Virus record (IMG/VR): IMGVR_UViG_2806310790_000002
Direction: 5' to 3' (one strand)
Length of the DNA: 64,000 bases
DNA from: an uncultured virus (IMG/VR IMGVR_UViG_2806310790_000002)
Lineage: Duplodnaviria > Heunggongvirae > Uroviricota > Caudoviricetes
Positions 4,120-61,850 of this stretch are shown here, in pieces; within the stretch, counting starts at the first letter, position 1; every line of letters starts with the position of its first letter. The position numbers and the translations under genes were made by a program. The notes beneath the pieces were generated by a model that was not told the DNA's origin, did no database searches, and worked only from the letters and a program-made list of their open reading frames with translations.

Positions 4120-4122
4120 TTA

Positions 4123-4545: not shown

Positions 4546-4594
4546 GATTTTACAAAGTTATAGGGAGTAGAAAGCTCCACTCCCTAATTAAACA

Positions 4595-4882
4595 TTAACG
4601 ATAACGGGAATAGCGTCCTGTACCGCGCACGCCACGTCTCTCGCCATAGCCACCACGGTCGCCATAACCTCCACGGTCGGAACCACCGCCATAGCCACCA
4701 CGTTCGCCCATTTCGTCATAGCGTTCATCGTCATCGTCATAATAACGTTCACGTCTTCCCATGCTTTCACCTCCGGAAAGTTCCTCGATGCACTGCATCA
4801 GTTTACCACCGTATTTGAGCATCTTTTCAGCATAGTCGGACATTTTCTCGACTTTGCTTTCTGTGATTTCAATTATCTGCAT
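4595..4882 (-). CDS. Small protein with RG/RGG-rich low-complexity C-terminus
   Basis: ERGGYGGGSDRGGYGDRGGYGERRGVRGTGRYSRYR. Confidence 0.75.
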   Translation of the reverse strand: MQIIEITESKVEKMSDYAEKMLKYGGKLMQCIEELSGGESMGRRERYYDDDDERYDEMGERGGYGGGSDRGGYGDRGGYGERRGVRGTGRYSRYR

Positions 4883-4884
4883 AA

Positions 4885-5418
4885 TTATTTACTTTTAGGA
4901 TTGTTACTACCACTTCCCAAAGCCTTGGCAAGCATATCTTTTATATCGGTAAGGGTATTTTCAACACCGGATACCTTTTGTTCAAGAACGCCGATTTTCT
5001 CTTCCTGTTCTTTTTCTTTAGCCAGTTGAGGATTAAGCTCCCTAAGCATGGAATCACAGGAGGAAATTACCTTCTCGTGATAAGGTACACTTTCTATTAC
5101 TCCTCGGCTTATTCTCAACATGGATTCCACCTCAGCATTCATTGCTTCCCGGCTTTCCGATACAACAACTCCATTCGCACCAAAATTGGCTATCGAAAGA
5201 TTTGCCGGAAGTTGTTTAAAATCAATAGTTTCCTCACCAACCTTAACCGAAACGTCAACAACTGTTTCCATATTTTGGCCATAAGTCTGCCCTGGTACAT
5301 ACTGTCCGTATTTAGGTTGTGGATTACTTACGGAAACAACCTGCCCTACTTTCAATTCAGGGTTTTCCCCTTTTTGAAGGATATAAAATATATTGGATTG
5401 TCTTAGACTCTGAAACAT
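4885..5418 (-). CDS. Hypothetical protein, beta-rich N-domain plus C-terminal coiled coil
   Basis: 177-aa ORF; heptad-like C-terminus. Confidence 0.75.
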   Translation of the reverse strand: MFQSLRQSNIFYILQKGENPELKVGQVVSVSNPQPKYGQYVPGQTYGQNMETVVDVSVKVGEETIDFKQLPANLSIANFGANGVVVSESREAMNAEVESMLRISRGVIESVPYHEKVISSCDSMLRELNPQLAKEKEQEEKIGVLEQKVSGVENTLTDIKDMLAKALGSGSNNPKSK

Positions 5419-28497: not shown

Positions 28498-28600
28498 ACA
28501 TTTAAAACATCCTTAAAAGTTTATTTCTTTATATTTAATTTTGTTTGTATTGATGTATAAAGTATATTTGTACATATATATAAATACACAACTTAGAGCA

Positions 28601-29722
28601 ATGGATTTTAAAGACAAAATTATGCAGCTATCCGATAATATAAAAAAGCAAAAGGATAGGATAGCAACAGAAGAAGCAACTAAAAATGCTTTCATAATGC
28701 CAATGATAGCAGCTTTGGGGTATGATGTATTCAATCCATTCGAGGTAATCCCTGAAATGGATTGTGATCTTATAAGAAAGAAAGGAGAAAAGATTGATTA
28801 TGCTATTATGAGAGAAGATGTTCCGATTCTTCTTATTGAGTGTAAACATTGCAAACAGGATTTGAATTTGCATGATACCCAATTACAAAAGTATTTCGTT
28901 GCATCGAACGCACGTTTTGGAGTTTTGACAAACGGTATTGTCTATAAGTTTTATACAGACTTGGAGAAACCCAATATAATGGATACTAAACCATTTCTGT
29001 CAATAAATATGTTAGACTTATCTGATTCAGACATAGAACAGCTCAAAAAGTTCCACAAGTCATATTACAACGAAGAAAATGTATTAGGAACCGCCAATGA
29101 ATTAAAATACACAACAGAGATAAAGGAAATTTTCAACAATGAACTTCAATCACCTACATCTGATTTTATTAGATTCTTTGCAAAACAAATATACACAACC
29201 GGGCAAATAACACAAAAGGTAGTTGAAATGTTCAACCCACTTGTGAAAAAGTCAATGTCTATGGTAATAAATGATATCATAGCTGAAAGGCTTAATACAG
29301 CAATGAAAAATGAGAACCAGGTCGAAGACATTACTAATCCTTCTAGTAATTTACCTAATTCCTCCAAAGAAAATGCAGACAGCAAACTACCTGACGGAGT
29401 AGTTTATATGGACAAGGAAACAGGGATTGTCACCACGCAAGAAGAAATGGACGCTTATAATATTGTGAGAAGCATACTTAGGCGTAGTGTAGATGCTTCA
29501 CGGATTACATATAAAGACTATAAGACTTATTTCGTTATAAGTTTAGACAACAGTCAATGGTATTGGATATGTCGTATTTCTATTGGAGCTAGAAAGAAGC
29601 AAATTGGAATACCAGTAGATAACTATAAAAGTTGCGAATGGATTCAAATTGATAATATAGATGATATATTTAAATATGCAGATAAACTAGAAGGGTCACT
29701 TAAAATGGCAATGAAAGAATAA
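28601..29722 (+). CDS. Stand-alone type I restriction enzyme HsdR N-terminal-like PD-(D/E)xK nuclease (moron)
   Basis: TEEATKNAFIMP..LGYDVFNP.EV.PE, KIDYAI, LIECK, QLQKYF, GVLTNG motifs; no helicase domain. Confidence 0.85.
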   Translation: MDFKDKIMQLSDNIKKQKDRIATEEATKNAFIMPMIAALGYDVFNPFEVIPEMDCDLIRKKGEKIDYAIMREDVPILLIECKHCKQDLNLHDTQLQKYFVASNARFGVLTNGIVYKFYTDLEKPNIMDTKPFLSINMLDLSDSDIEQLKKFHKSYYNEENVLGTANELKYTTEIKEIFNNELQSPTSDFIRFFAKQIYTTGQITQKVVEMFNPLVKKSMSMVINDIIAERLNTAMKNENQVEDITNPSSNLPNSSKENADSKLPDGVVYMDKETGIVTTQEEMDAYNIVRSILRRSVDASRITYKDYKTYFVISLDNSQWYWICRISIGARKKQIGIPVDNYKSCEWIQIDNIDDIFKYADKLEGSLKMAMKE

Positions 29723-29735
29723 TAACCAACAAATT

Positions 29736-30605
29736 ATGAAGAAAATATCATTTTTTATTATAGCAATAATTCTATTAACAAATTGCAGTTCAAATGAAAG
29801 CCCTATTATATATGAACCGGAACCCCCAAAATACAATATTAATAGTACAGTTCAAGTAGGTGACATCAAACTACAATCTTATATTTTTGAAGGAGATTAT
29901 TATATAGAGGCTATTGACGAATCAGACAACAAGGCGTTTACTATCAAGGACAAAGCAGAAGGATATATAGAGGATTTAGGGTTTGGGGAGACAAAAGAGT
30001 ATCCTGTTAGAGGCTGCTATATACAAAGCACTTTGAAAAAGGATGATTATCTCTACATATTGGTCAGTTTATATGGTGACTTAATCGCTCATCCACATAA
30101 ATTTATATTAAAGATAAAGGGTGGAAAAGTGGTTAAGAAAGAATTTTTTGATAAAATGTATTATGATGGTTATGACGAAGTGCTTTTATATCCTGAAGCA
30201 ATAGCAGATTGGTATGGAGAGTATATTGCCATTTATACAACGATAAGAACCAGTAGTGATGCTATAGTTATATTAGATAAAGATTTGAAAAACGTATATG
30301 GTAGAAATTATGCCCACAATTGGACCGAATATATAGGAAAAAATAACTATATATCTTTATCTTTAAAAAATATGGTATATATATCCAATAATGAGGTTGT
30401 ATGTGTAGATGTATCAAAATATTCGTATAAAGACTATCTGTTATGGCACACCCCTATCACCGATGAAGAAATAAGAGTAGACAAGACCTCATATTCGTTG
30501 GAAGGAGACAACGTAATAGTAGACGTTGAAGCAACCACTAAGGCAGGAGAAAAAAAGAAATATCATCTGGCCTTGAATAAGGAAACTGGGAGAATTGCAT
30601 TCTAA
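29736..30605 (+). CDS. Lipoprotein (moron; possible superinfection exclusion)
   Basis: Signal peptide MKKISFFIIAIILLTN-C with lipobox cysteine; beta-rich body. Confidence 0.75.
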   Translation: MKKISFFIIAIILLTNCSSNESPIIYEPEPPKYNINSTVQVGDIKLQSYIFEGDYYIEAIDESDNKAFTIKDKAEGYIEDLGFGETKEYPVRGCYIQSTLKKDDYLYILVSLYGDLIAHPHKFILKIKGGKVVKKEFFDKMYYDGYDEVLLYPEAIADWYGEYIAIYTTIRTSSDAIVILDKDLKNVYGRNYAHNWTEYIGKNNYISLSLKNMVYISNNEVVCVDVSKYSYKDYLLWHTPITDEEIRVDKTSYSLEGDNVIVDVEATTKAGEKKKYHLALNKETGRIAF

Positions 30606-31507: not shown

Positions 31508-31579
31508 AGCGGACTAGTGGAACTGCACCACTCCCTTCGCTCAGGTAGAACGACGCACGTCTATGTGTGCTTAATCCGC
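31508..31579 (-). tRNA. Non-canonical tRNA-Gly-like cloverleaf, anticodon ACC
   Basis: GCGGATT-AA-GCAC-ACATAGAC-GTGC-G-TCGTT-CTACCTG-AGCGA-AGGG-AGTGG-TGCAGTT-CCACT-AGTCCGC-T; all four stems pair; Gly identity elements (G1:C72, C2:G71, G3:C70, U73, C35C36); lacks U8, D-loop GG and TTC. Confidence 0.75.
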
Positions 31580-37254: not shown

Positions 37255-38871
37255 TTATTGGAAATGACTATAATATTCGATTGATTTTTCAGCTATTTTT
37301 TGCGCCTTTTTATCAGCCTTGTCTAATACTCGCCATTCTTCATAATATTTATGTCCTAGTCCCCCTTTCATACCTGTTTGCTTTTGTATTTCTTTCCAAC
37401 GTTTTTCTCCAAGAATTCGTTTTGCGTCTTCCGGCTTTTCTTTGGCATAAATCATACGATCTGTATTGACTTGAATCTCGGCAATTAATCCGTTAGACGC
37501 TTGGATATTAACTATATTCCCACTATATCCCATAAACGATTCCGGTTTTTGTCTTTTCAGTCGAACAAATGAATCGCTTTCAGACAGTTCGTTCAAGACT
37601 TGATCTATTTGTGATTTAGGAACTATAATTGTCGTCCTAACAGCGTCTTTTATATCATATGGAGTTATACTCTCCGTTGTCACCTTTCTTGTTATTGATG
37701 AAATACTTTTGTAATTGATTGGAGTTACAAATCCTTTGTGCTTTTTAGCTATGGATTCCGCTAAACTTTGTACCTCATTACCAACTAAAGAAGCACGATT
37801 AACAAGCTCCTTAGCTGAATTATCGGTATTTATATTCTGAATAATTGATTTGTTATCTCTCAAAAAATAAGGTAAGGTGTTTCTTTTCCGGGCTTTTTCT
37901 ATCTTTTGTTGGTTTTCGAGTACCCATTTTTTGAATTCGTCAGGAACATCCTTTACTTCATTTATACTTTCTGTAGAAACATCGATCCGCCCATCCCATT
38001 CCCAGAATTCTTCTTCTGTTTTGAGGATAGGAACTTTATAACATAAATCATTCGGATGCCATCCTGTCCATGTGAAGTCTTTAGGATATTTACCGGCAAG
38101 TGTATCACAAATGTCTCCATGTGGCATACGGCTATGATGAGAAGAACTTAGTTTTATTTCATATCCGACTACGAAATCCATTTGTTTCCATCTTTCGTTT
38201 TCAGCTGTTCTATAAGCCATATTTATTTCTGAACGGGCTAGACGTATGGAACGATATTCACAATCTTGTATATGTTCAGCACTGCCATATCTGTCTTTGT
38301 AATCTTTTTGCAGTAATGGGAAATCAAGAAGATACTTACTTATTTGCTTACTCAACGTAACAGCACTGGTTCCTTTTTGAATAGCGCATGAGATCGCGGC
38401 CTCCAGTTCTTCTTTGTAGATCATAGATTGTTGCCAAAGTTTTGCAGATATATTTAATCCTTTATCTTTTCGGTTCTGGAATGCTTTCAAAGCATCTGAA
38501 TTTGTTTGATACAAAACTTTATATTTCTCTTTGTCAACTTGGGCGTTATAAGCTCTTAATACTTTGTTGGCTATTAAATCCTGTGCTTCATTACTGTTCT
38601 TCCATTCTTCAGATGTGCCACGATAGATAGCGGCATGAATGTCATCAACAAATTGAGCCTGTATGTCATCTATCTGTTTCTTCGTTTGAGGATAGTCAGA
38701 CCATTTAAACGGCTTATCGCTATCAGGGGAATATTTAGTACGTGAAACAGATTTGGCAGCTTCCAAATTCAGGGTATCGTATATTTGCTCAACGAGGGAT
38801 ACATATCCGTTTAATCTCCCGTTGAGTTCTTGGTACTTTTTTTTCTGATTTGGAATCTTGGGTTTTGCCAT
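37255..38871 (-). CDS. MuF-family minor head protein with C-terminal RelA/SpoT-like alarmone synthetase toxin (Apk2-like); likely start MAKPKIP
   Basis: MuF motifs RLARSEINMAY, DICDTLAG, GWHPNDLC; synthetase motifs KSISSITRK, IKDAVR, GYSG, AEIQVNT, GHKYYE. Confidence 0.85.
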   Translation of the reverse strand: MAKPKIPNQKKKYQELNGRLNGYVSLVEQIYDTLNLEAAKSVSRTKYSPDSDKPFKWSDYPQTKKQIDDIQAQFVDDIHAAIYRGTSEEWKNSNEAQDLIANKVLRAYNAQVDKEKYKVLYQTNSDALKAFQNRKDKGLNISAKLWQQSMIYKEELEAAISCAIQKGTSAVTLSKQISKYLLDFPLLQKDYKDRYGSAEHIQDCEYRSIRLARSEINMAYRTAENERWKQMDFVVGYEIKLSSSHHSRMPHGDICDTLAGKYPKDFTWTGWHPNDLCYKVPILKTEEEFWEWDGRIDVSTESINEVKDVPDEFKKWVLENQQKIEKARKRNTLPYFLRDNKSIIQNINTDNSAKELVNRASLVGNEVQSLAESIAKKHKGFVTPINYKSISSITRKVTTESITPYDIKDAVRTTIIVPKSQIDQVLNELSESDSFVRLKRQKPESFMGYSGNIVNIQASNGLIAEIQVNTDRMIYAKEKPEDAKRILGEKRWKEIQKQTGMKGGLGHKYYEEWRVLDKADKKAQKIAEKSIEYYSHFQ

Positions 38872-38887
38872 TAGTTCATTTGCTTTT

Positions 38888-39250
38888 TTATTCCTCCGAA
38901 ATTCTATCAGGTGCTGGCATCTCCAATAATCGGATAGCTTTAATTGTCTCCTTGCCCTCCAATATCGCTTTACATAAACGATGGTAGCCATCGGCAATTT
39001 GACCTACTTCGTCAAGGATAATAGGATATTCAAGAGAGCATTGATTCACCCGTTTGCATTGAAAAATGAAACTGTGAAGCTGATTACATTCAAATGGTTC
39101 AGCTGTAAGGTCTATATTCCATAATGGCATATCAAGCACTGGATATTCTTTTGCCTTAGCAAAATCGTAGAGTGTTTGAGCTTTCCATATCTTGTCTCCA
39201 CGATGATATTCACTTTCGCTAAAAGTTATGTTATCTATAGGAACCTGCAT
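38888..39250 (-). CDS. ParB/Srx-like N-terminal domain protein
   Basis: YPIILDEVGQIADGYHRLCKA motif. Confidence 0.75.
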   Translation of the reverse strand: MQVPIDNITFSESEYHRGDKIWKAQTLYDFAKAKEYPVLDMPLWNIDLTAEPFECNQLHSFIFQCKRVNQCSLEYPIILDEVGQIADGYHRLCKAILEGKETIKAIRLLEMPAPDRISEE

Positions 39251-42496: not shown

Positions 42497-44038
42497 CTAC
42501 AAAAAATCTTTGAGCAACTCTTCATCACTAATAAAACTATAATTTCTAGGATAAAACGTATTCGCTAATGCGTCCATATAGTCAGGAGAACGCTTAATAC
42601 GTTTTTTGACATCTTCCTTAGGTTCAATAATAACCTTTCCATTACTAAGGAATTTCCACTTGGTTTCAGTCGCTTCTTCCATCAACTGGTCGCACGGTGG
42701 CAAAGCTGCACCAAAACCATTTTTAGGATTGAGCCAATCACGTAAAGCCCAATACAGATATGCACGCATGTTGGCAAATTCGTACTCTCCGGTAATATCA
42801 TGCAATCCATCTGTCCCTTCCGAATATTTGCATGAAAAAGCATTCGTAAATTCTTCCTCCAACAAACGAGAATAGACACCTGCCCCCTCTCCTATCGTAT
42901 CAATAAATGCTTTTGCTCCCTTCTTCTTTAAATATGGTATTGTCATACCTACTACATGCATGTGATCCGCACGTCCAGCAGATTGATGAACATCAAATTG
43001 TGGAACATAATTCCCGTATCTCGGACAAAGGACACTATTGTCGCGTCCCATACCGGCAACATCAACACCTAGCTTACAAGATTTGGCTGGAATGAAACCA
43101 CTTGCCTGTAATTCCTGCCAATTCCTATTTGCTATCTCTATCCATTCATAAGGAATAAGAACATCTTCAGATACTTTCGGGAACATACCAAGTACCTTGA
43201 CGCGAAACAAATCGTTAGGTCGGTATAGCTTACCTTCCCAATTAAAATCTCCTTCTCCCTCATTGAAGTCCGTTTGTTGAATGGGGGAGCACCAATTTAT
43301 AACCTTGTCCTTAACCCATTCATAATCCACTTGACCGGGTATTACTATTTGCTTCTTTACTACATTTTCTGCATTTAGAGAGCTAAGCCTGAATTTCGCA
43401 AAACGGTCAGACTTCATGGCACGAGCTGCGTAACCAGTAGTAATATTCGGGTTAAATACTATGAGCATCCGAGAATTGCCCTGCAAGTTACCTTCTATTG
43501 CATTATAAACAATTTCGGATATACCTGATGCCTCCGTGATAACAAACATGGTATTCGCTGCATGAAATCCAGACCATGATTCGGTTGCATTATCATCCGC
43601 TTTAAATCCTGTCAGAAACCATTCTTCATAATCCGTTCTTATATCATCAGCAACCAATCTGCCAGGACAACAAAAAGGGAACTTTGTCCTTGCAGCACGA
43701 ATCAGCCTTCTTATTTCAGGAGTCATAATATTTTTCACTTGCCGCCCTGTTGGTGCTGTCATAGCCACCTTAGTATTCCCAACAAGCACACCTTTTTCAT
43801 TAAATCTAGGAGTTAGATACATAAAACATAGCGAAGCACAGGCAGCAACAAAATCTTTTCCACGAGCAGTTCCACTTGCAACAGCAGTCATTGGATTATG
43901 CTGAACAGACTCAATAATAGCTTGCTGCTCACGATCTAATCTTGCACATAATGCGTCACGAACGAACTTATTCCAGTCATTAGACCAGTATGCTATAATT
44001 TCACTGATTAGTTCCTTCTTTTCATCCTTTGTCACCAT
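42497..44038 (-). CDS. terL: Terminase large subunit
   Basis: Walker A VASGTARGKD, Walker B-like FVITEASG, LIVFNP coupling motif, nuclease LGVDVAGMGRD and RSPDYMDAL. Confidence 0.92.
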   Translation of the reverse strand: MVTKDEKKELISEIIAYWSNDWNKFVRDALCARLDREQQAIIESVQHNPMTAVASGTARGKDFVAACASLCFMYLTPRFNEKGVLVGNTKVAMTAPTGRQVKNIMTPEIRRLIRAARTKFPFCCPGRLVADDIRTDYEEWFLTGFKADDNATESWSGFHAANTMFVITEASGISEIVYNAIEGNLQGNSRMLIVFNPNITTGYAARAMKSDRFAKFRLSSLNAENVVKKQIVIPGQVDYEWVKDKVINWCSPIQQTDFNEGEGDFNWEGKLYRPNDLFRVKVLGMFPKVSEDVLIPYEWIEIANRNWQELQASGFIPAKSCKLGVDVAGMGRDNSVLCPRYGNYVPQFDVHQSAGRADHMHVVGMTIPYLKKKGAKAFIDTIGEGAGVYSRLLEEEFTNAFSCKYSEGTDGLHDITGEYEFANMRAYLYWALRDWLNPKNGFGAALPPCDQLMEEATETKWKFLSNGKVIIEPKEDVKKRIKRSPDYMDALANTFYPRNYSFISDEELLKDFL

Positions 44039-44513
44039 TCTTATATGAAGTGGTTAATGATTTTAAAGCATCTACCCAATCATTGTTAGTTACGTTTACA
44101 TCCTGTTTATCTTTCCATTCATTTGGCCTACGATTTTTCAACCAGAATATTTGTGCCGTTGTATCTCCTGCGACATGCTTTTTCGTCTTCTTAACAACGG
44201 TAGTTTGACCTGATCCGTCCTCTCCTATTCTCACTTCAGTTGTAGTTTCCTCGATATCATAGCCAATAGCTCTTTTATATAAAGCACTCTCTACTTTCAT
44301 GTCAGCTTCTTCCTTACCTTCTCTCAATAAATCTACAACTTCAGGATGCTTTTTTAATATACTTTTAAATGTAGTAAGTCCTATTCCAAGACGTACACAT
44401 AAACCTTTGTTATCAGCTCCATTCCTACAGTCTGCTATAATAATATCCTCTTTACCTTTTATATATTTATCATAAAGAGACATCTCTAATTTGGGCCTAC
44501 CTCTACCTGCCAT
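44022..44513 (-). CDS. terS: Terminase small subunit
   Basis: GRPK start, HTH, VESALYKRAIG, DTTAQIFWLKNRRPNEW. Confidence 0.85.
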   Translation of the reverse strand: MAGRGRPKLEMSLYDKYIKGKEDIIIADCRNGADNKGLCVRLGIGLTTFKSILKKHPEVVDLLREGKEEADMKVESALYKRAIGYDIEETTTEVRIGEDGSGQTTVVKKTKKHVAGDTTAQIFWLKNRRPNEWKDKQDVNVTNNDWVDALKSLTTSYKNGDKG

Positions 44514-44514
44514 A

Positions 44515-45279
44515 TTACACCTCCTTGTCTTTCATTTCTTGCAAATAAGCTTTGCATATATCAACCATACGAGCAAAAGCAACAGTATTACTCTTTATAT
44601 TAAATTTCTTCTTTACTTCTGTAGCTACCTTTATAAATTCTTCATAAGAACCTACAACTATCGAACTATTTGCAGATATTTTCTGTTTTTCAAGTTCAGC
44701 TAGAACAGCTTTGACATCATTACTCCTGCTTTCAGTAAACAAGAACTTCATTTCCGTAAGCTCTATATCCCCATCATTAATAGAAACGGTAGGAATCTTA
44801 TCTGTATCAATAAATTGAATACCGTTAAGGCCAGAAAACTCTCTTGCTTCAATAGTGCGCATCTCGCTATAAATTTCCTTAAGCATTTGAGCATCATCTT
44901 TGCCTACTAAAGCATTATGACTAAGCACATAGGCAATCTGTTTGTCTTTATCAACCTCTTCAATATACAAGATTAGAATATATTCCAGCTTAGCTTTAAT
45001 AGCAGCTTTTAAACGATGATTTCCCGACAAAATAAGATATTTCCCATCATCTCGTTTCATTGCGAACGGAAGCTGAGATAAAAAACCGTCTTCAGCCACA
45101 TTTGCTGTTAGTCTATCCAGTGTGGATTTTTCCATATAGTGAGCATTCTTCTCCAACGGAATGCAATCATCTATAGGGCTTACATATGCTAACTTATACG
45201 GAGCAATCAATTTGTTTACATCATCCAGTTTCCCCTGAATAAGATGAACATCTTTCACTTCTTGTATTTTTTCAACCAT
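44515..45279 (-). CDS. ParB-like N-terminal domain protein
   Basis: KNAHYM..LTANVAEDG..YLILSGNHRLKAA..LSHNALVGKDD. Confidence 0.85.
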   Translation of the reverse strand: MVEKIQEVKDVHLIQGKLDDVNKLIAPYKLAYVSPIDDCIPLEKNAHYMEKSTLDRLTANVAEDGFLSQLPFAMKRDDGKYLILSGNHRLKAAIKAKLEYILILYIEEVDKDKQIAYVLSHNALVGKDDAQMLKEIYSEMRTIEAREFSGLNGIQFIDTDKIPTVSINDGDIELTEMKFLFTESRSNDVKAVLAELEKQKISANSSIVVGSYEEFIKVATEVKKKFNIKSNTVAFARMVDICKAYLQEMKDKEV

Positions 45280-46556
45280 AATCTATATAAATCCTTTAAT
45301 GAATCATCTAAAAAACTAGCAGAATACATTAGTTTGCCTTCATCTCTCCTGTCAAGATTGAATACACTGCGGTATTTCATACTTACTGGTGAAGATGTAT
45401 ACACAGTTGTCTTAATCCCTTCATAATAGTGACCCATTTTTCTTGCAATGAGCATCCTCACATCGTGGGACTTAGTAAGCATAATCAGCAATTTACTAAG
45501 CCTCTGTGTATTTGAGTTTACAACAAAATCACTCTGCATAAATATCTTCTCAAGTGTAGATAACTGTTTGATGAAAGAAGTAAATCCAAACGCTTTACCG
45601 TCAGCCATAAATACCATACCTAAATCTCCACCAGTTGTATAATTAACCTTGTTTGCCATGTAAAACGCTTTATAATAATTCACATCACTAACCGGACATA
45701 ATTTTGCAGATATTACCGTATTATCTGTAAATTCATAATCTATTGGTAAAATATGAGTATATGATGACTTTACATTTTTATCACGTTCAATGTAATAATG
45801 CTTATTTTGATTTACGCTAGAGTAAGTGTATATAGGATTCTTGCCTGGCCCCAAGTTTATTTTGCCAACAAGGAAGTTGTCTATCTCCTTGAAATATCTA
45901 TCAGAATAGATGATGTTTTCATCATTCTCAAGGAGGTTCTTGAATATATTTCCACCCTCTTTGGGATCAAAGACATTATAAGTAGCACGCATATAATTAA
46001 AGCTTTCTTCGACATAGCTAAACATCTTCTCATACCCTCCTTTATACGTAGGAGGAAAGCTTATACCAACACCTTTACCTTTTTTGCTTTTTAGGAAGTC
46101 AAAAAAATCACCATAGAAGAAACTCTTAATATTAAAATTAAGTGCGCCTTTTTCAATCTTAGATATAGTATTATGATAATAAACTTTTGATTGCTCAATA
46201 AAAGCGTTAAACATTTCTTCTTGGTAATCGTTTTTCCTTTGGTGAAAGTTCGACACTCTCATTGCAAACATTACTTGAATAAGCTTTTTGTATTTAGTGT
46301 CATCCCATGTGTCAAAAACCATACGTAATTCAGGATTCACAACTTCAATATCAGTATTTGTATCAAGTAATAGATCAGAAATTAGTTTGGAATATAGACT
46401 TACATCATTAGAATGTACTGTGTATCCCATACTACTCATAATTTTATCTGTTGTAAAATTACCAGAGCACCCGATGAAAACATCTTTATTTTCAACTCCT
46501 TTCATTAAGTCTTGGAGGAGAATCTTTACTTCTGGAGGTGTTGTTCCCTGAAACAT
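45255..46556 (-). CDS. Dam-like adenine methyltransferase domain fused to a Mom-like GNAT domain
   Basis: N-half VFIGCSGNFT (motif I), VHSNDVS, YGDFFDFL, FPPTY (divergent motif IV); C-half MVFMADGKAFGF..SDFVV..RLSKLL..IKTTVY..SMKYR follows the GNAT/Mom strand-helix order. Confidence 0.65.
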   Translation of the reverse strand: MFQGTTPPEVKILLQDLMKGVENKDVFIGCSGNFTTDKIMSSMGYTVHSNDVSLYSKLISDLLLDTNTDIEVVNPELRMVFDTWDDTKYKKLIQVMFAMRVSNFHQRKNDYQEEMFNAFIEQSKVYYHNTISKIEKGALNFNIKSFFYGDFFDFLKSKKGKGVGISFPPTYKGGYEKMFSYVEESFNYMRATYNVFDPKEGGNIFKNLLENDENIIYSDRYFKEIDNFLVGKINLGPGKNPIYTYSSVNQNKHYYIERDKNVKSSYTHILPIDYEFTDNTVISAKLCPVSDVNYYKAFYMANKVNYTTGGDLGMVFMADGKAFGFTSFIKQLSTLEKIFMQSDFVVNSNTQRLSKLLIMLTKSHDVRMLIARKMGHYYEGIKTTVYTSSPVSMKYRSVFNLDRRDEGKLMYSASFLDDSLKDLYRLWLKKYKK

Positions 46557-46595
46557 ATTATTATCTTTATTGGGTTGTATATAACTTCATATACA

Positions 46596-46763
46596 TTTTG
46601 CGTTAAATGCCTGCCGAGCGTATTCCCGACAGGCTTAACACAAAATTCAATCATTCTGCAAGCTACTTGCAAGAACACTTATGCAATCTATTCGGCTTCT
46701 TTCAGTCGTGTCAGATGGCAATTTCCATCACCCCGTAAATTGCATAAGCTTTAATGTTCTTGC
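46596..46763 (-). ncRNA. Two long stem-loops in the leader of the methyltransferase-GNAT gene
   Basis: ttttg-gttaa-gcctg / caggc-ttaac-caaaa (46596-46645); gcaagaaca-cttatgcaat / attgcataag-tgttcttgc (46669-46763). Confidence 0.55.
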
Positions 46764-46790
46764 TTTTGCTTATCTCTACTATAAGGGTTG

Positions 46791-46979
46791 AGGGATAAGT
46801 AGGAGTCGAACCTACACAAGTATCGTCTGCTTTCTCGCTTTCGTCCGTAGATTGGTTATCCTACGATTCTTAAACTACTCAACCTGTTACTAACAGCACC
46901 GGTCTTGATGACATCCATTCTTATGTACACTTAGAATTTCCGTTCATTTAATCTTAGCGCCCTATGATCATTTTATCCC
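46791..46979 (-). ncRNA. 189-nt tRNA-like RNA with a large internal insert
   Basis: Acceptor GGGATAA/TTATCCC + T, perfect T-arm GTAGG-TTCGACT-CCTAC, D-like arm TGATC/GATTA; ~130 nt with several hairpins replaces the anticodon/variable region. Confidence 0.7.
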
Positions 46980-46983
46980 TACG

Positions 46984-47105
46984 TGGTGGTAGCAGGACTT
47001 GAACCTGCAATGATAGGTTTAGCGACTGAGCTGTTGTTAGCTTCCTCAGCGTCCTATTCAGTACTATCTACCGCAATGTATCGTTTACCATTCCGACATA
47101 CCACC
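46984..47105 (-). tRNA. 122-nt class II-like tRNA-like RNA, anticodon unassignable
   Basis: Acceptor GGTGGTA/TACCACC + A, D-arm TCG-GAATGGTAAA-CGA, T-arm GCAGG-TTCAAGT-CCTGC; weak anticodon stem; ~50-nt hairpin variable arm. Confidence 0.7.
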
Positions 47106-47220
47106 AAATTTGCGTGTCTTTCCACGCTGTCAGATTTGCAGCTACCGGCTAAATACATGGAGTTGAACCATATGCAATTTACCATAATCTCAATCACCGA
47201 GCCGACTTGAACGGCATTAG

Positions 47221-47290
47221 AGCGGAAACAGGGAATCGAACCCCACTCTTTGGCTGGAATGCCAACGCTCTACCGATGAGCTATTTCCGC
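47221..47290 (-). tRNA. tRNA-Gly(TCC)-like gene with a 6-nt anticodon loop
   Basis: GCGGAAA-TA-GCTC-ATCGGTA-GAGC-G-TTGGC-ATTCCA-GCCAA-AGAG-TGGGG-TTCGATT-CCCTG-TTTCCGC-T; no encoded CCA. Confidence 0.8.
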
Positions 47291-47376
47291 AAATGCTTGT
47301 CTATTCCAAGCTGTCAATGGTTTCCGTTTTCAATTGACGTGTGTATCCATAACCATAAAAAGCCTCACACATATCT

Positions 47377-47781
47377 TTAAAACAAACTAGCTTGTTCGTA
47401 CTTAGGCTCTTTCTTCTCAACTACCCCAAACTCCGTTATTTTAATGCCAGTATTTTCAGTAAGCCATTTTGCCAAAATATGACGATGGCAAAAATCACCC
47501 GGTTTTTCGTAACAGCAGAGAGCGACATCTTTACCTTCACTTAACGATTCTATTTGTTCGATTACCTTATAAGCATCTTGATTTGCAAGAATCTCATCAT
47601 AAAGTCTAAGATACTCATCATGAGAACATGCAGCACTTATCATATACCTTGTTGGAGCCACATTAACCATTTGTGGTACTCCACTAATAAATCTTGGCCT
47701 TCCAATAGCTACGCAAATAATTTTAACTCCTGCCTCTTTCAATTTTCGGTTATTACCGAAATAACTTGTGTAAATTTTCAT
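47377..47781 (-). CDS. DUF488-family protein; likely start MKIYTSYF
   Basis: IYTSYF, VAPT, ALCCYEKPGDFCHRHILAKWL motifs. Confidence 0.8.
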   Translation of the reverse strand: MKIYTSYFGNNRKLKEAGVKIICVAIGRPRFISGVPQMVNVAPTRYMISAACSHDEYLRLYDEILANQDAYKVIEQIESLSEGKDVALCCYEKPGDFCHRHILAKWLTENTGIKITEFGVVEKKEPKYEQASLF

Positions 47782-47805
47782 TGCTCTTTTTTTATTTTTA
47801 TGGTG

Positions 47806-47842
47806 TAAAGATACAAAATATGACATAAAAAGCGTCACTTTT
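47806..47842 (-). promoter_or_regulatory. Promoter -7-like box TATCTTTA plus palindromic operator (copy 5)
   Basis: aaatatgac-N9-gtcactttt; heads the DUF488 / tRNA-like / MTase / terminase unit. Confidence 0.7.
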
Positions 47843-47856
47843 AGTCATAAAATTAC

Positions 47857-48042
47857 CTAATTTGATGATTTTATTGTCTCAACTTTGTAACATTTCATCA
47901 TGTGATCTGTTTCTCGTCCCATGTTAAAGATATTACCGAGATAGTATCTATGGGCTTCTTGTTCTGATAAGTTGATAGGGGTAACGAACCAGTCTTTATT
48001 GCCTTGTTCGTCTTTTAAATACACTTTTACTGTTGTTCTCAT
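47857..48042 (-). CDS. Small hypothetical protein
   Basis: 61 aa; AGAGCAATG start. Confidence 0.7.
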   Translation of the reverse strand: MRTTVKVYLKDEQGNKDWFVTPINLSEQEAHRYYLGNIFNMGRETDHMMKCYKVETIKSSN

Positions 48043-48046
48043 TGCT

Positions 48047-48238
48047 CTATATTTTACTAAAGTACTTAATTAATTTAAAAACAAGATATTCAGGAGAAAT
48101 ACTTTTAGCTTCACAAAAAGCAAGAATATCCTCTTTTTTTATATTTAAGATTTCAATTCCTTGAATATCAATTTCTTGTATTTGGGTTATTTCTTCACAA
48201 TAATCTATACGATTGAATCTGTCTTTGTAATCATTCAT
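48047..48238 (-). CDS. Small hypothetical protein
   Basis: 63-aa AT-rich ORF. Confidence 0.55.
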   Translation of the reverse strand: MNDYKDRFNRIDYCEEITQIQEIDIQGIEILNIKKEDILAFCEAKSISPEYLVFKLIKYFSKI

Positions 48239-48273
48239 AATTTGTATCGTTATTAGTTATTATACTCTATATT

Positions 48274-48558
48274 TTATCCATTATATGATGCTGTTATTTC
48301 TTTAGCATGAAGTTCTTTTTTCAACTCACCGTTCTTGTATATTCTTACAGATACGATTCTAACCGTATCGGACAGGAAACGTCCACAATCATTGGTTAAC
48401 TTCACTTTTAGCTTGATTGCCTTGGCTAAACTTTTTGTACGCTTCTTGATTGTATCTTTGAATCCGAAAACGAAATCTTCGGTATCAATTTCAAACTGAT
48501 ATATATCAGAATACAATATCTGATTCAGGTCTGATGTCATTTGCTCTATCTTACTCAT
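48274..48558 (-). CDS. Hypothetical protein
   Basis: 94-aa ORF. Confidence 0.65.
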   Translation of the reverse strand: MSKIEQMTSDLNQILYSDIYQFEIDTEDFVFGFKDTIKKRTKSLAKAIKLKVKLTNDCGRFLSDTVRIVSVRIYKNGELKKELHAKEITASYNG

Positions 48559-53049: not shown

Positions 53050-53613
53050 TTAATATTTCTTCCCGTGCATTTTTTCACGGAGTTCGTTATACTTCATTTT
53101 CTGCTCGATGTGCCACATAAGGTCAATACTAAGATATTTAGCAAGTCCAAAGATTTCAAGCAGAAGCATTTCTGGTACGACACACGAGCGTATAAAGACT
53201 TCATTATTTGAAGTAATAAACTTTATGATATGGAATATTGATTCTGTAAATGATTTATTACAGTAGGTCGCAGAATATTCTGATATTGTTTCCTCGTCGA
53301 ATGCATCCTCGTCTAAGTCAATTCCTAGAAGTCCATATAAATCAAGCAGGCGTATGCAGGCATCGGCAAGCTCTTCGGCAACTGTACCTTTAATGCAGTA
53401 GTCATATACCTGCTTTAAGTTATTCTTTGGATATGATATACCGCAGTTAAATTGCTCTATAAGAGGCTGTTTCCCTTTTCTATCCGCTTCCACAGCCTCC
53501 ATTAGCTCCGATATTACTAGGCAAAGACAATGTTCATTGCTCAACTCCTGATCGTGAAATCCATGCTCACAAGCGTTTTTGTAGGACTTATCTCTTAATT
53601 CGTTTAAATTCAT
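53050..53613 (-). CDS. MazG-like nucleotide pyrophosphohydrolase
   Basis: ISELMEAVEADRK and EELADACIRLLD motifs; KMKYNELR. Confidence 0.8.
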   Translation of the reverse strand: MNLNELRDKSYKNACEHGFHDQELSNEHCLCLVISELMEAVEADRKGKQPLIEQFNCGISYPKNNLKQVYDYCIKGTVAEELADACIRLLDLYGLLGIDLDEDAFDEETISEYSATYCNKSFTESIFHIIKFITSNNEVFIRSCVVPEMLLLEIFGLAKYLSIDLMWHIEQKMKYNELREKMHGKKY

Positions 53614-53754
53614 TTCTATTTTATATTGATAAAAGGGCACGATTTCCAAGAGAAGTATAAATTGTCACATTTAAAACTTTATCGTCAAAAATGGAGAACG
53701 TGCCCATATTATTATTACTTTTGTTATGTCACATTTAAATATTAATTTATCGTT

Positions 53755-54000
53755 ATGAAATTAACAGAAGAACAAAAATTAAAACTTCAGCAAAACCTAA
53801 AAGGAAAAGGAATTTGCTCTAACTGTGGATTTGCTGGCGGCATAGAGCCTCTAAATGCACAATTTCAACTGCAATCCCCTGTAATTAACAATGGAGTGAT
53901 TGATCTCAATTCACCAGTTAATTCATGGCCTGTTATTGCCGTTAGATGCCCTAAATGCGGATTAATTTCGCTTTTTGACGCTAACTTCCTTGACATTTAA
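53755..54000 (+). CDS. Small zinc-ribbon protein on the opposite strand (moron)
   Basis: CSNC...CPKC; + strand TACTTTTG box at about 53716-53723. Confidence 0.7.
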   Translation: MKLTEEQKLKLQQNLKGKGICSNCGFAGGIEPLNAQFQLQSPVINNGVIDLNSPVNSWPVIAVRCPKCGLISLFDANFLDI

Positions 54001-54110
54001 CCATTGTAGTACTCGCAATGGTTGCAATCTTTTGGACTGCCGTACTTGTTTTAAACTTGTACGGCTTTTTTCTATATTCTTCATTTCTATTTTGATTTGA
54101 ATTAAACTTC

Positions 54111-55016
54111 TTATTCGCAAAGTCCATGATAAAGGCTCATGCAACTATATCCGCCTTCTGGTTCAAACATATCATCCATACCTACATCGTTACGGTTTAC
54201 ATACTCGAAAACTTCCTGTACTGTTGGATAAGTCCTATTCTTGCAGAAGCGATTGGGGATGTAACCGGGTGAGAAGAAAGACGAACCTTTTGGAGTTTCT
54301 TCTTTCATCCTTTGCTCTGCATCTATCAAGCGGTTACGCCCGAACTCTTCTTGTGAAATGAGTTTGACTTCCTGCTTTCGACACATAATACAAGGATAGC
54401 AACCAACACGGGAAAATCCACGAGAATACAAAGGATTTGGCTTTTGTCCGGCAGATAAGATATGATTTATTACTTCTTGTGCCGACCACTGAAAAATCGG
54501 ACGGGAAACGCTTGCATCATAGTGTTCACACCATTTAAGTACATCTTTTCTACGATAATCCTGCTTCCATACTTCAACAATCTTTCCTTTGCGATTCTTT
54601 TTAATGCGTTCGTAATACTCCCCAAAGTAATTGCATTCATAGGGAAGTTTAGCACGCTCTTCACTTTCCTTTGCCCGGATGCCTTGTATAATCACGCAAG
54701 GTTCAGTAAGTGAGAGAATGTAATCAATCATCGGTTTAATTTTCAATTCTGAAGTACAAAACCTTCTTTGGGAAGACGGGAACCGGGAGCGCTTGATAGA
54801 CATATCTACAAAATCAGTATATTTCTTGCTTCTCAAAACTACTAATTTAACATCAAGCTGTTTGCACACGTCACTAATATGTTGATAGGTTTCGGGATGC
54901 TCCCAACCAGTATCACAGAAAACAGCTTCTATTTTATCGGCTCCGTATTTATTGGCAGCTTGGATCAAGCAAGCTTGTGAATCCTTTCCGCCAGAAAAAC
55001 TTACTATTATCTTCAT
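54111..55016 (-). CDS. Phosphoadenosine phosphosulfate reductase-family (CysH/DndC-like) protein
   Basis: SFSGGKDS PP-loop, DTGWEH, RFCTSELK, GIRAKES, RVGCYPC. Confidence 0.9.
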   Translation of the reverse strand: MKIIVSFSGGKDSQACLIQAANKYGADKIEAVFCDTGWEHPETYQHISDVCKQLDVKLVVLRSKKYTDFVDMSIKRSRFPSSQRRFCTSELKIKPMIDYILSLTEPCVIIQGIRAKESEERAKLPYECNYFGEYYERIKKNRKGKIVEVWKQDYRRKDVLKWCEHYDASVSRPIFQWSAQEVINHILSAGQKPNPLYSRGFSRVGCYPCIMCRKQEVKLISQEEFGRNRLIDAEQRMKEETPKGSSFFSPGYIPNRFCKNRTYPTVQEVFEYVNRNDVGMDDMFEPEGGYSCMSLYHGLCE

Positions 55017-55042
55017 TTGATTCCTTTCTAAATTTATTTAAA

Positions 55043-55807
55043 TTACACAAATAGCGATTGCTGGATACGTGATAACACAAATTTATTCGCATCAGCAAAG
55101 AACTTTTTTTTAATCTCAAATCCGTATGCCCTGCGTCCCAACTGGGCAGCAGCTAATAAGGTAGAACCGCTTCCGGCACATGGATCAATAACGACATCAC
55201 CTTTGTCGGTGAATATCTCTATCAGCCTACGAAGCAAAGGAACCGGTTTTTGCGTGCTATGAACCTTCGGAGTTTCATTGTCCACCACCCAATCAAAGCA
55301 ATTGAAGATCATCCGACCATCGTTGTTAAACTTTGGAAGTTTATCGCGGTAAAGCAACAATCCATATTCACAATTGCCGACTATCTTCATATTGGCTTTC
55401 AAGACTTGCGCTGAAAAGTTCTTTCTAAATACAAGATTGATGTAATTATTCAGCCCATATCTTTTACCCAGTTCAATATACCGGAACTGGTCTTCAAATT
55501 CACAAAATATTATCATGCAAGGCGCCTTGCCTTTTTCCTTGGGTTCCTTTACAAGCATCTGGGAGCAGAAGTGCATAAACTCGGCAGGGCGAAAATCTTT
55601 ATCGGTATCAAAGAATTCTTTACCCGCTTTATCGCTTTCTCCATTCTTATTATCACCATCCACATACCATGAAGGGTTAGAAGCATAAGCACTATTGCCT
55701 AAATTATAAGGGACATCGGCTATAATTAACTGGGCTTTTGGGATTCCATAAGAACGGAAATTTTGGAAATGGTCATTGAATAACTTAGGTTTTATATTTT
55801 TATCCAT
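55043..55807 (-). CDS. DNA methyltransferase (beta-class N6A/N4C)
   Basis: IIADVPY motif IV, HSTQKP, DPCAGSGST motif I. Confidence 0.9.
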   Translation of the reverse strand: MDKNIKPKLFNDHFQNFRSYGIPKAQLIIADVPYNLGNSAYASNPSWYVDGDNKNGESDKAGKEFFDTDKDFRPAEFMHFCSQMLVKEPKEKGKAPCMIIFCEFEDQFRYIELGKRYGLNNYINLVFRKNFSAQVLKANMKIVGNCEYGLLLYRDKLPKFNNDGRMIFNCFDWVVDNETPKVHSTQKPVPLLRRLIEIFTDKGDVVIDPCAGSGSTLLAAAQLGRRAYGFEIKKKFFADANKFVLSRIQQSLFV

Positions 55808-56346
55808 TTTAATCCTCCTGATGTTTTACTCCTGCCATTTAATACTTGAGATATAGCCCCTTTACATAAACCTTTTGATTTTTCTGCTAATCTTACAGAT
55901 TCAAAAACCTCGCCTGTGTTAACACATTTTACCATTGTATAAGAATGTCTCTTTTGATGTAATTCCCTATATGCATGTTTTAAATTATCACTTCGGCTAC
56001 ACCACTCTAAATTATCAACATGGTTATTGCATTTATTACCATCTTTATGATTAACTTGTTCAAGGTTTAAAGGGTTATTTATAAAGGTTTTTGCAACAAG
56101 TCTATGAACTGTGAAAGCCTTAGTTTTATTCCCTATTCTTAGCCAAACGATACAATATCCATTATTTTGAATACCGTATTTAATAATTCTTCCTTTATGT
56201 ATACATGTATGTCCATTTTTACAATATCTTTTTCTATCAACAGATTTTATTCTACCAAAAGAAGATGCTTGGTATGAATAGTCTGTTTCAGGAATAATTT
56301 TCCAAACTTCTTGGAAATGATCATTATATAGTTCTATTTCTTTCAT
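55792..56346 (-). CDS. NUMOD4 + HNH homing endonuclease (C-terminal NUMOD1-like)
   Basis: EVWKIIP..YQASSFGRIKS, VHRLVAKTFI, VNHKDGNKCNNHVDNLEWC. Confidence 0.92.
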   Translation of the reverse strand: MKEIELYNDHFQEVWKIIPETDYSYQASSFGRIKSVDRKRYCKNGHTCIHKGRIIKYGIQNNGYCIVWLRIGNKTKAFTVHRLVAKTFINNPLNLEQVNHKDGNKCNNHVDNLEWCSRSDNLKHAYRELHQKRHSYTMVKCVNTGEVFESVRLAEKSKGLCKGAISQVLNGRSKTSGGLKWIKI

Positions 56347-61097: not shown

Positions 61098-61850
61098 TTA
61101 TAAGTCAAATAGACTTGTTTGTACTAAAGTTCCTTTTTCTGTTTTTATTTCTCCGTGACATTCATAACGGAAACGAGAATTACCTTCTTTAAAATGAAAC
61201 TTGTCTTTTTCACATCCCCAATAGTCGAATCTTAGCTTGTAAGCTGCAATCCGGCTACTTTGACTACCCATGTGAGCATCACCGATCTTATAACCGGGGT
61301 TGGCATATTGATTGAGTAACCATGCGTATAAAATTACAGGTTTTTGGCAGGGGTGAATCCGCTTTTCATTCAACTTTTTGTTTCCTTGCTGTATAATTGC
61401 CTTAGATAAATCCTTTCCGCAATAGGTTCCCTGAATCATGCCTCGCCACATGCAATATACAAGGTCAGTTCTGTTATTCATACTGCAGTATGCTATTTCA
61501 CAATCGTATTGGTCAGTATCACCATTTAGCTTATCCCAAACAATGCGTCCACCAGTAAAGTCGTAATTAAAGTAGTTTACTCCCCATATTATCTGATTTC
61601 GGCTGACCCTTTTTACTTCATCGAAATATTCTGGAGGGGGAACTCGTGAATCCCAGTCTGATTTCGGATAAACGGATTGTTTAACATACAGTATATTACC
61701 ATTACTTTGTTTTACAGTATTGGGCTTGATCGAAGGATTATCCGCTCCAATTCCGTATGGTGGATCATCTATGAACAAGTCAAAGAAGTTATCTGGGAAT
61801 TTCTTTAAGAAATCCATTCGGTCTATATTATATACTTCGCTTATTGGCAT
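61098..61850 (-). CDS. DNA methyltransferase (beta-class N6A/N4C)
   Basis: DDPPYGIG, IHPCQKP, DAHMGSQS motifs. Confidence 0.9.
   Translation of the reverse strand: MPISEVYNIDRMDFLKKFPDNFFDLFIDDPPYGIGADNPSIKPNTVKQSNGNILYVKQSVYPKSDWDSRVPPPEYFDEVKRVSRNQIIWGVNYFNYDFTGGRIVWDKLNGDTDQYDCEIAYCSMNNRTDLVYCMWRGMIQGTYCGKDLSKAIIQQGNKKLNEKRIHPCQKPVILYAWLLNQYANPGYKIGDAHMGSQSSRIAAYKLRFDYWGCEKDKFHFKEGNSRFRYECHGEIKTEKGTLVQTSLFDL

Follow-up and report, generated by a model that had tools for sequence, protein, structure and literature searches.

The window analysed here is the whole 64,000-nucleotide (nt) stretch of IMG/VR record IMGVR_UViG_2806310790_000002, from an uncultured Caudoviricetes virus. It is a prophage of a gut bacterium and sits in a complete 4.57-Mb chromosome (G000:C1:2690734–2754733). 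Our subject is a − strand module consisting of a DUF488-N3a gene (47377–47838; Pfam PF22751, E 5.9e-12; PF04343, 2.5e-06; phrog_2450), a tRNA-Gly-like gene hereafter called tRNA #1 (47221–47290; Rfam tRNA, 53 bits; ARAGORN call 'tRNA-??? (tc)'), a gene for a 433-amino-acid (aa) fusion protein (45255–46556; PF22555 plus PF22559; phrog_7858, 2.6e-115) and a ParB-like gene (44515–45279; phrog_7405, 1e-59). Directly downstream of the module lies terS (44022–44513; phrog_309, 5.2e-41), followed by terL (42497–44038; phrog_2, 1.5e-26). Open reading frames (ORFs), Pfam/PHROG, Rfam, ARAGORN and direct reading of the sequence place on this strand the features listed by the initial annotation of the same DNA, its promoter excepted; that annotation had seen in them a candidate tRNA-dependent DNA-hypermodification system. 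Comparison across relatives reveals that the fusion gene is repeatedly accompanied by an anomalous tRNA-Gly gene, a linkage that points to glycyl-tRNA as a possible donor for DNA modification.

The fusion of a Dam-like and a GNAT domain is real, with both Pfam families above their curated cut-offs in one protein. Residues 2–254 (46553–45795) match PF22555, DAM-like-phage1, 'Phage DNA Adenine Methylase-like domain 1' (3.1e-44; 151.7 bits against a cut-off of 27), and residues 290–432 (45689–45261) match PF22559, 'Phage GNAT-like domain' (3.8e-28; 98.8 bits against 27); these were the only two families in the Pfam scan (E ≤ 0.01). Because PF22555 plus PF22559 is a curated Pfam architecture, the initial reading of the motifs was correct. 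That architecture was already known, and what is new here is the comparative linkage between tRNA-Gly and the fusion gene. A homolog search returned 758 clusters, many of them from gut Bacteroidales phages; both domains are present in 117 of the 120 listed, nearly all of ~433 aa. phrog_2443, 'amidoligase enzyme', matches residues 282–400 at 2.7e-09. The window protein has no amidoligase domain, and a search for longer homologs turned up no amidoligase fusion; its one product, a 770-aa form extended by an HNH domain, is itself weak evidence. No NCBIfam family matched the fusion or the DUF488 protein.

Structures were compared by searching AlphaFold models against 48,161 PDB representative chains without a prefilter. 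In the model of the whole protein (mean predicted local distance difference test (pLDDT) 86.5), the Dam-like half is nearest to E. coli Dam (Z 13.5, 196 residues aligned), followed by Mcbe1 (13.3), T4 Dam (11.8) and DpnM (10.9). Amino-methyltransferases carry motif IV as (D/N/S)PP(Y/F/W), the first residue of which has a catalytic role. Here the motif reads FPPTY (residues 167–171, 46058–46044), the very alteration picked out by the initial annotation, and its first position is F or Y in 32/32 aligned Dam-like domains, never D, N or S, in an alignment whose members share as little as ~24% overall identity. The same 32 sequences show hardly any variation in motif I (G-CSG-N-F) or motif II (HSNDVSLYS). 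The family thus shares with the Dam-type N6-adenine methyltransferases (E. coli Dam, 2ore; T4 Dam, 1q0s; DpnM, 2dpm) a common fold over residues 2–250 and stretches resembling motifs I and II, but differs from them in having (F/Y)-x-P-(T/F/S)-x at motif IV in every sequence and in being fused to a GNAT domain. Judged by these patterns, the domain seems to have kept a pocket for a ligand or base while lacking the canonical methyl-transfer residue.

At the level of predicted structure, the GNAT fold of the C-terminal half is established by the PF22559 match together with an AlphaFold2 model of the domain folded alone from 31 sequences (166 residues, pLDDT 93.0). It runs strand, helix, three strands, two helices, three strands, helix, which is the GNAT core alone; the predicted fold had been the first thing that AlphaFold modelling and a Foldseek search were to check. 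Phage Mu Mom (8bv8_B) ranks first among GNATs with both the whole model (Z 10.2) and the domain model (Z 10.5, root-mean-square deviation 3.1, 133 residues aligned). The description 'Mom-like' therefore survives at the fold level and fails in sequence: since profile similarity is absent and the Z score of Mom is tied with those of ordinary GNATs, it denotes a fold-level lead only. A profile search of PDB sequences with the fusion protein recovered no Mom and only chance eEF1A matches at E ~1. The invariant residues of the 31 GNAT domains concentrate in ..RLSKL.. and ..VSMKYRG... Acetyl-coenzyme A (acetyl-CoA) GNATs carry a Q/RxxGxG/A loop; the corresponding β4–α3 stretch reads ..RLSKL.. and contains a glycine in 0/31 domains.

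tRNA #1 has G1–C72, C2–G71 and G3–C70, the discriminator U73, and a UCC triplet inside a 6-nt anticodon loop, AUUCCA. Its T loop, UUCGAUU, is normal, without UGC or UGU. Its acceptor stem is identical to that of host tRNA-Gly(GCC); given this host-type stem and an intact identity set, tRNA #1 should be a substrate of the host glycyl-tRNA synthetase (GlyRS). The host itself has seven canonical tRNA-Gly genes (2 UCC, 4 GCC, 1 CCC), all with 7-nt loops, which together cover all Gly codons, so tRNA #1 fills no decoding gap. A phrase search of the literature, with subscription journals outside its reach, returned no paper that names a six-nucleotide anticodon loop.

To the question of whether gene and tRNA-Gly co-occur in relatives, the answer was strongly positive. 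Among 62 viral contigs whose fusion protein is 72–100% identical to that of the window (the close set), 61 have a tRNA #1 homolog upstream of the fusion gene on the same strand, the exception being locus L085. These copies fall into 15 sequence variants, and the six-base anticodon loop is kept in 61/61 (AUUCCA, or GUUCCA in one variant). By appearance this fits the translation-poor tRNA-Gly that had been postulated, in a host with seven normal genes. The distance from tRNA to gene is 218–224 nt in 29 loci and 460–935 nt in 32, and the intergenic DNA around tRNA #1 is far more variable than the tRNA.

The distant set comprised 48 loci (503,749 nt): 28 genome loci from many phyla and 20 viral loci. 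Default ARAGORN called 11 tRNAs in it, nine of them Gly (L010, L017, L021, L026, L027, L091, L092–094), one Glu and one Ser. At the 90% threshold, which yields one extra call in the 64-kb window, Gly-type genes directly upstream were added in L006 (ACC), L104 (UCC) and L096; 11 further calls in the distant loci were taken as noise. In all, a Gly-type tRNA lies on the same strand and ≤610 nt upstream of the fusion gene in 10/48 distant loci; four of the 48 were too short to judge, with <100 nt of upstream DNA. Elsewhere, the tRNA-Gly of L017 lies 912 nt downstream of the fusion gene and that of L026 5.2 kb off, beside a tRNA-Ser. L096, at 62% protein identity, repeats the six-base AUUCCA loop, and its stem carries a compensatory change at 30–40. 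The linkage reaches phages of Bacteroidota, Chlorobiota, Planctomycetota, Chloroflexota, Negativicutes and Actinomycetota, at the same position. Clustering of 51 proteins at 50% identity gave 14 clusters, with tRNA-Gly linkage in five, or six if L026 is counted.

Against a binomial null set by the host Gly share of tRNA genes (7/71), the tail for seven Gly among nine dereplicated tRNAs is 2.7e-6, and that for 5/7 in the upstream same-strand zone (2.7% of the search space) is 2.7e-7. A strict cloverleaf scanner for tRNA-Gly gave 7 matches against 0.2 per shuffle; a relaxed version gave 29 against 15.8 per shuffle and therefore served solely as confirmation where a hit was expected. A control set of 45 Mom loci (205 kb) returned no tRNA with default ARAGORN and, as a gauge of the errors made at the 90% threshold, 14 noise calls there, a comparison that is weakly informative because all 45 are Mu-like (85–99% identity) and represent one lineage.

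Fusion homologs also occur in 15 cultured phage records, 10 from Mycobacterium and five from Gordonia; the two inspected both have a tRNA-Gly-like gene. In Mycobacterium phage Megabear (MH001446, L111), an annotated tRNA-Gly(tcc) at 3893–3964 abuts the fusion homolog. The annotated start of that homolog, gene 70 (3947–5335), overlaps the tRNA by 18 nt; since similarity to the window protein sets in only at locus position 4001, the start given in the record probably lies too far upstream. In Gordonia phage Clawz (NC_071004, L112), a degenerate sequence resembling tRNA-Gly(UCC), with CCA encoded, goes unannotated in the corresponding place (3823–3896); it fills part of the 218-nt gap before gp29 and is missed by ARAGORN even at an 85% threshold. 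According to its announcement, the Cluster W mycobacteriophage Taptic has tRNA-Gly as its sole tRNA.

The linked tRNAs deviate from elongator tRNAs in many ways and share the features read by GlyRS. Their anticodons vary (UCC, CCC, ACC), and 14/14 distinct copies keep U73, G1–C72, C2–G71, G3–C70, C35 and C36, the L112 copy having been found by a scanner that demanded Gly identity features. These positions make up the bacterial Gly identity set as listed in Table 1 of PMC9976931. A second tRNA-Gly-like gene of the window (31508–31579, − strand, among head–tail genes), noted earlier for its deviant T loop, is indeed present: it has a UGCAGUU T loop, anticodon ACC, A8 and a D loop without GG, it is the sole extra ARAGORN call at the 90% threshold, and it shows 0 mismatches in our own cloverleaf scanner. 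It is identical in 7 viral contigs by exact search, hence offers no variation to analyse. Near-universal features of elongator tRNAs are a 7-nt anticodon loop, U33, U8, G18–G19 and UUC in the T loop, and 11 of the 14 distinct linked copies break at least one of them. The seven-membered loop is lacking in the tRNA #1 clade and in L096; U33 is replaced by A33 or G33 in L006, L027 and L091; A8 stands in place of U8 in the 31508 copy, L006, L091, L092 and L104; G18–G19 is missing from the 31508 copy, L021 and L027; and the T-loop UUC is replaced in the 31508 copy, L021, L026, L027, L096 and L112, by UGC in the 31508 copy and in L021 (UGCAAGU).

The ParB-like gene, whose start overlaps the fusion gene end by 25 nt, is a near-obligate partner: iterated hmmsearch found a homolog directly downstream of the fusion gene in 36/40 loci. 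Its product scores 17.9 bits with Pfam ParB_N, below the 26.3 cut-off, and matches 11 ParB- or nuclease-named PHROGs (E 4.7e-12 to 8.6e-4); within its SGNHR motif, S85, G86, H88 and R89 are invariant and N87 nearly so in 26 sequences. DUF488 is a frequent upstream partner, with a homolog directly upstream of the fusion gene in 24/40 loci by the same search and in L017 by Pfam. Wherever DUF488 and the tRNA co-occur (window, L006, L027, L092, L096, L104), the order is DUF488, tRNA-Gly, fusion, ParB-like. Searches of PDB sequences with the DUF488 and ParB-like proteins gave no useful match. A 2025 preprint describes an archaeal ParB-CTPase protein fused to DUF488 and a helix-turn-helix (HTH) domain (10.1101/2025.10.10.680097).

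Phage Mu Mom has been shown to move glycine from Gly-tRNA-Gly onto N6 of adenine in double-stranded DNA (Silva et al., Nat Commun 2026, PMC13219725), so the donor that the initial annotation had named is now on record. In our best reading, to which we assign a probability of roughly 0.6, the module likewise modifies adenine in a Mom-like, Gly-tRNA-dependent way, the donor being a tRNA that the phage supplies and that does not decode. From the observed domain families and folds, gene order, tRNA-Gly linkage and tRNA anomalies, we infer that the tRNA is charged and its glycine transferred, which base is hit and when, and what the ParB-like and DUF488 proteins do. The module would be a late-expressed DNA-modification system that resembles Mu Mom in operation and differs from it in its components. 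The GNAT domain would take glycine off Gly-tRNA-Gly and place it on a DNA base, most likely at N6 of adenine, a target suggested by the Dam-like domain. That domain, having lost the catalytic D/N/S of motif IV, would provide DNA binding and presentation of the flipped base. The ParB-like protein would join the fusion in acting on DNA, either during packaging or just before it. The phage would supply its own donor tRNA-Gly, still charged by host GlyRS and kept out of decoding by the 6-nt anticodon loop. The result would be a glycyl pool not consumed by translation, as with the non-proteogenic tRNA-Gly that serves FmhB, FemA and FemB in Staphylococcus aureus. A stronger and broader version, that phages of at least six bacterial phyla encode dedicated, decoding-incompetent tRNA-Gly solely to bring glycine to a Dam-like/GNAT DNA modifier, we hold to be possible at slightly less than even odds; in that version the S-adenosylmethionine-like pocket of the Dam-like domain may have been re-used for the flipped adenine or for the glycyl-adenosine end of the tRNA.

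Two known systems frame this proposal. Mu Mom (PDB 8bv8) likewise has a GNAT fold without a CoA-type glycine loop and is a phage late-region enzyme, and by analogy its Gly-tRNA-Gly donor and its flipped-adenine target in double-stranded DNA may be the same for the fusion. It belongs, however, to a Pfam family other than PF22559 and carries an HTH-like insertion where the fusion instead has a fused Dam-like domain; it is paired with Com rather than with a ParB-like partner and a DUF488 neighbour; and Mu brings no tRNA of its own (0 in the 45 Mu-like loci), unlike the window phage. The second parallel is the non-proteogenic tRNA-Gly genes of S. aureus, in which TGC or TGT replaces TTC in the T loop and which, as described in PMC7826273, bind EF-Tu poorly and supply FmhB, FemA and FemB. 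The genes NP1–3 of S. aureus and S. epidermidis are, in the same account, extra tRNA-Gly genes that keep GlyRS identity and deviate in the D and T loops, as do the phage genes. NP1–3 are dedicated to non-ribosomal glycyl transfer, and the phage tRNA may be so by analogy. The UGC T loop is common to the S. aureus type, the 31508 copy and L021. The phage genes differ in being phage-encoded and in their proposed acceptor, DNA in place of lipid II, and the main phage copy, unlike NP1–3, has a normal T loop and would be disabled by its 6-nt anticodon loop.

Several results weigh against the proposed glycyl-tRNA mechanism. On the protein side, the GNATs next after Mom score Z 9.8–9.9 and count as a tie, the lead of Mom over acetyl-CoA GNATs being less than one Z unit; Foldseek returned for the GNAT half only ordinary acetyl-CoA GNATs, and no Mom, among the matches listed; and hhalign of the fusion against Mu Mom gave probability 0.06 and E 0.79, that is, no sequence similarity. 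The HTH-like insertion of Mom (residues ~175–209) has no counterpart in the GNAT domain model, which contains no extra helical insertion; PMC13219725 describes that insertion as essential for Mom activity. The near-invariance of motifs I and II would be equally compatible with a Dam-like domain that uses a ligand and is possibly still catalytic. On the RNA side, the 6-nt loop might take out or shift the nucleotide beside C35/C36 and so hinder GlyRS. The tRNA was not detected in 34 of the 44 evaluable distant loci, including all eight Leptospira loci, and a phage-encoded tRNA is therefore not required; the tRNA-Gly of L026 may belong to the host. Lastly, across the window clade the intergenic region serves as a general site for RNA cargo, with a tRNA-Phe in 15/62 close loci and a tRNA-Cys in 10/62.

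The same observations lend some substance to a different, on balance unlikely, account, in which the fusion transfers acyl groups to DNA or protein from acyl-CoA or another small donor and the tRNA-Gly serves translation or acts as an anti-nuclease decoy or replacement. The best of the listed Foldseek matches are all acetyl-CoA GNATs, with Mom within 1 Z of them; tRNA-Phe, tRNA-Cys and odd tRNA-like RNAs also occur in the intergenic region; and no tRNA was detected in 34/44 evaluable distant loci. This account has difficulty with the choice of amino acid, Gly in 9 of 11 default tRNA calls and at the same position across six phage host groups. A supplement to translation would need neither a 6-nt loop nor a UGC T loop, in a host with seven normal tRNA-Gly genes, and the glycine-rich CoA loop is lacking in 31/31 GNAT domains.

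We regard it as improbable that the protein is simply an anti-restriction adenine methyltransferase, its Dam-like domain methylating with a variant motif IV and its GNAT domain being regulatory or separately targeted. The fold is nearest to Dam (Z 13.5), motifs I and II are almost invariant in 32 sequences, and one NCBI record bears the name 'putative antirestriction adenine methyltransferase'. Against these stand the F or Y that opens motif IV in 32/32 sequences, where D, N or S never appears, and the two ordinary DNA methyltransferase genes that the phage already has (55046–55807 and 61101–61850, both on the − strand); the tRNA-Gly linkage and the GNAT fusion of 117/120 listed homologs would also be left unexplained.

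More doubtful still is that the GNAT domain acts on charged tRNA-Gly itself in the manner of TacT, with the phage tRNA as target, decoy or regulator and the DNA unmodified. TacT is a GNAT toxin described as acetylating Gly-tRNA-Gly, with specificity through U73 and G71 (PMC9976931; PMC13219725). Both nucleotides are kept in all linked tRNAs, but the fusion to a Dam fold, the ParB-like partner in 36/40 loci and the place before terS and terL point to DNA, and a CoA-type loop is missing. Very improbable, finally, is a recoding tRNA (a frameshift suppressor with a 6-nt loop, or an 8-nt loop if 31–39 opens) lying beside the fusion by chance: the abnormal loop size is indeed kept in 61/61 copies and G39 to A in two loci would open the last pair, yet C31 to U keeps a wobble with G39 in several variants, L096 has its compensatory change at 30–40, and the normal-looped, CCC, ACC and T-loop-defective tRNA-Gly at the same position elsewhere would go unexplained.

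Mom is the only enzyme for which tRNA-dependent DNA modification has been established, and that only recently. If the glycyl-tRNA reading is right, the fusion would add a further, independent enzyme family that hypermodifies DNA with the help of tRNA, unrelated to Mom in sequence, and would extend to viruses an idea developed for S. aureus; on the broader version its partner would be the first viral 'non-proteogenic' tRNA. The reading would also account for some of the 'odd' phage tRNAs that tRNA-finding programs overlook or leave undetermined, and it would predict a hitherto unknown DNA adduct that could block restriction enzymes and disturb nanopore or single-molecule real-time (SMRT) base-calling of gut phage DNA. 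With 758 homolog clusters the module is widespread, and the idea is open to direct test in cultured phages, namely Cluster W mycobacteriophages and Gordonia phage Clawz, whose homologs adjoin a tRNA-Gly. Our literature search, which covered neither subscription journals nor the supplements of PMC13219725 (including its homolog network), found no paper in which DNA modification is tied to DUF488, to this GNAT family or to phage tRNA-Gly, and none on the linkage of tRNA-Gly with the fusion gene.

Between tRNA #1 and the fusion gene the window holds further RNAs on the − strand. The initial annotation had counted two tRNA-like RNAs as parts of the system; both are present, but their distribution among the close loci marks them as variable cargo outside it. 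tRNA-like RNA #2 (122 nt; 46984–47105; Rfam tRNA, 37.8 bits) has a tRNA acceptor, D arm and T arm, with 64 nt where a 17-nt anticodon arm belongs, and occurs in full in 8/62 close loci. Its relatives have the 5′ and 3′ tRNA parts in common and differ in the middle, one of them (L079:3655–3779) scoring 39.5 bits. RNAs of this type (~120–140 nt; L079, L030, L090, L056) combine a class-II-tRNA-like D arm and a T arm/acceptor with a variable middle unlike an anticodon arm, and form interchangeable cassettes between tRNA-Gly and the leader. tRNA-like RNA #3 (189 nt; 46791–46979), read from the sequence, consists of a 7-bp acceptor helix and a canonical T arm around a ~150-nt insert. It occurs in 23/62 close loci, and Rfam gave for it only a tmRNA T-arm fragment (E 0.67; fold z −0.18). 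In an RNA library from a cultured organism, a separate short contig (46790–46967) covers it with a word depth of 435, its neighbour having 17.6, and in a second run a contig at 46811–47154 has a depth of 127 against 7.7, such depths being poor measures of expression; tRNA-like RNA #3 may be an abundant, stable prophage RNA. Two canonical tRNAs, neither of which the window has, lie just upstream of the tRNA-Gly-like gene in other close loci: tRNA-Phe (GAA) in 15 (L031–L037, L041–L043, L053–L055, L070, L072, L086) and tRNA-Cys (GCA) in 10 (L057, L061, L068, L079–L084, L087).

Directly before the fusion start codon lies a structured leader of ~225 nt (46557–46790, − strand; fold z −4.86 and −3.81) with three conserved hairpins. 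RNAalifold on 13 leader variants predicts 56 pairs, seven of them with compensatory changes. A homologous leader is found in 56/62 close loci, and in 29 of 61 a leader of ~220 nt is all that separates tRNA-Gly from the fusion gene. No Rfam family matches it. The leader may be an undescribed cis-regulatory RNA, a candidate for translational or transcriptional control, and by analogy may govern expression as Com and a hairpin do for mom.

How the module is transcribed was judged from promoter and terminator scans and RNA libraries. For the promoter that the initial annotation had placed at 47806–47842, a sigma-70 scan gave no − strand hit, Bacteroidetes-type promoters being outside the scope of the tool; its single transcription unit finds a basis only in the shared strand and in the 0 terminator-like sites of 44400–48300. 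The RNA libraries were represented by Logan contigs only (four runs from two studies), so that an uncovered stretch proves nothing. Contigs cover DUF488 and the RNA region in the four runs, pieces from X1 only cover the interior of the fusion gene, and none falls in 44000–45700. The DUF488 ORF is listed from a GTG at 47838; an ATG at 47781 would give 134 aa.

In the wider genome, the − strand order is a replication module (58–63 kb), small genes, the fusion locus, terS, terL and then portal, head, tail and lysis genes. Beyond window position 1, at a distance of 154–227 nt, the host chromosome carries a tRNA-Thr(CGU) gene (G000:C1:2754888–2754961); this gene, beside the phage end of the window, is a likely integration site, and the prophage adjoins tRNA-Thr, not tRNA-Gly. 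Genes for a pyrophosphatase, a PAPS-reductase-like protein, a DNA methyltransferase and an HNH endonuclease at 53053–56346 (−) make up a second, separate block of nucleic-acid-modification type in the same phage. The head-morphogenesis protein at 37258–38997 (−; phrog_7625) also matches phrog_16625, 'Bxa ADP-ribosyl transferase', at 1.4e-69. At 28541–30602, two + strand genes interrupt the otherwise uniform − strand order of the phage, separating the tape-measure gene from the upstream tail genes; they encode an endonuclease (phrog_4225, 2.8e-126) and an unknown 289-aa protein, and the insert looks like a moron or a defence island.

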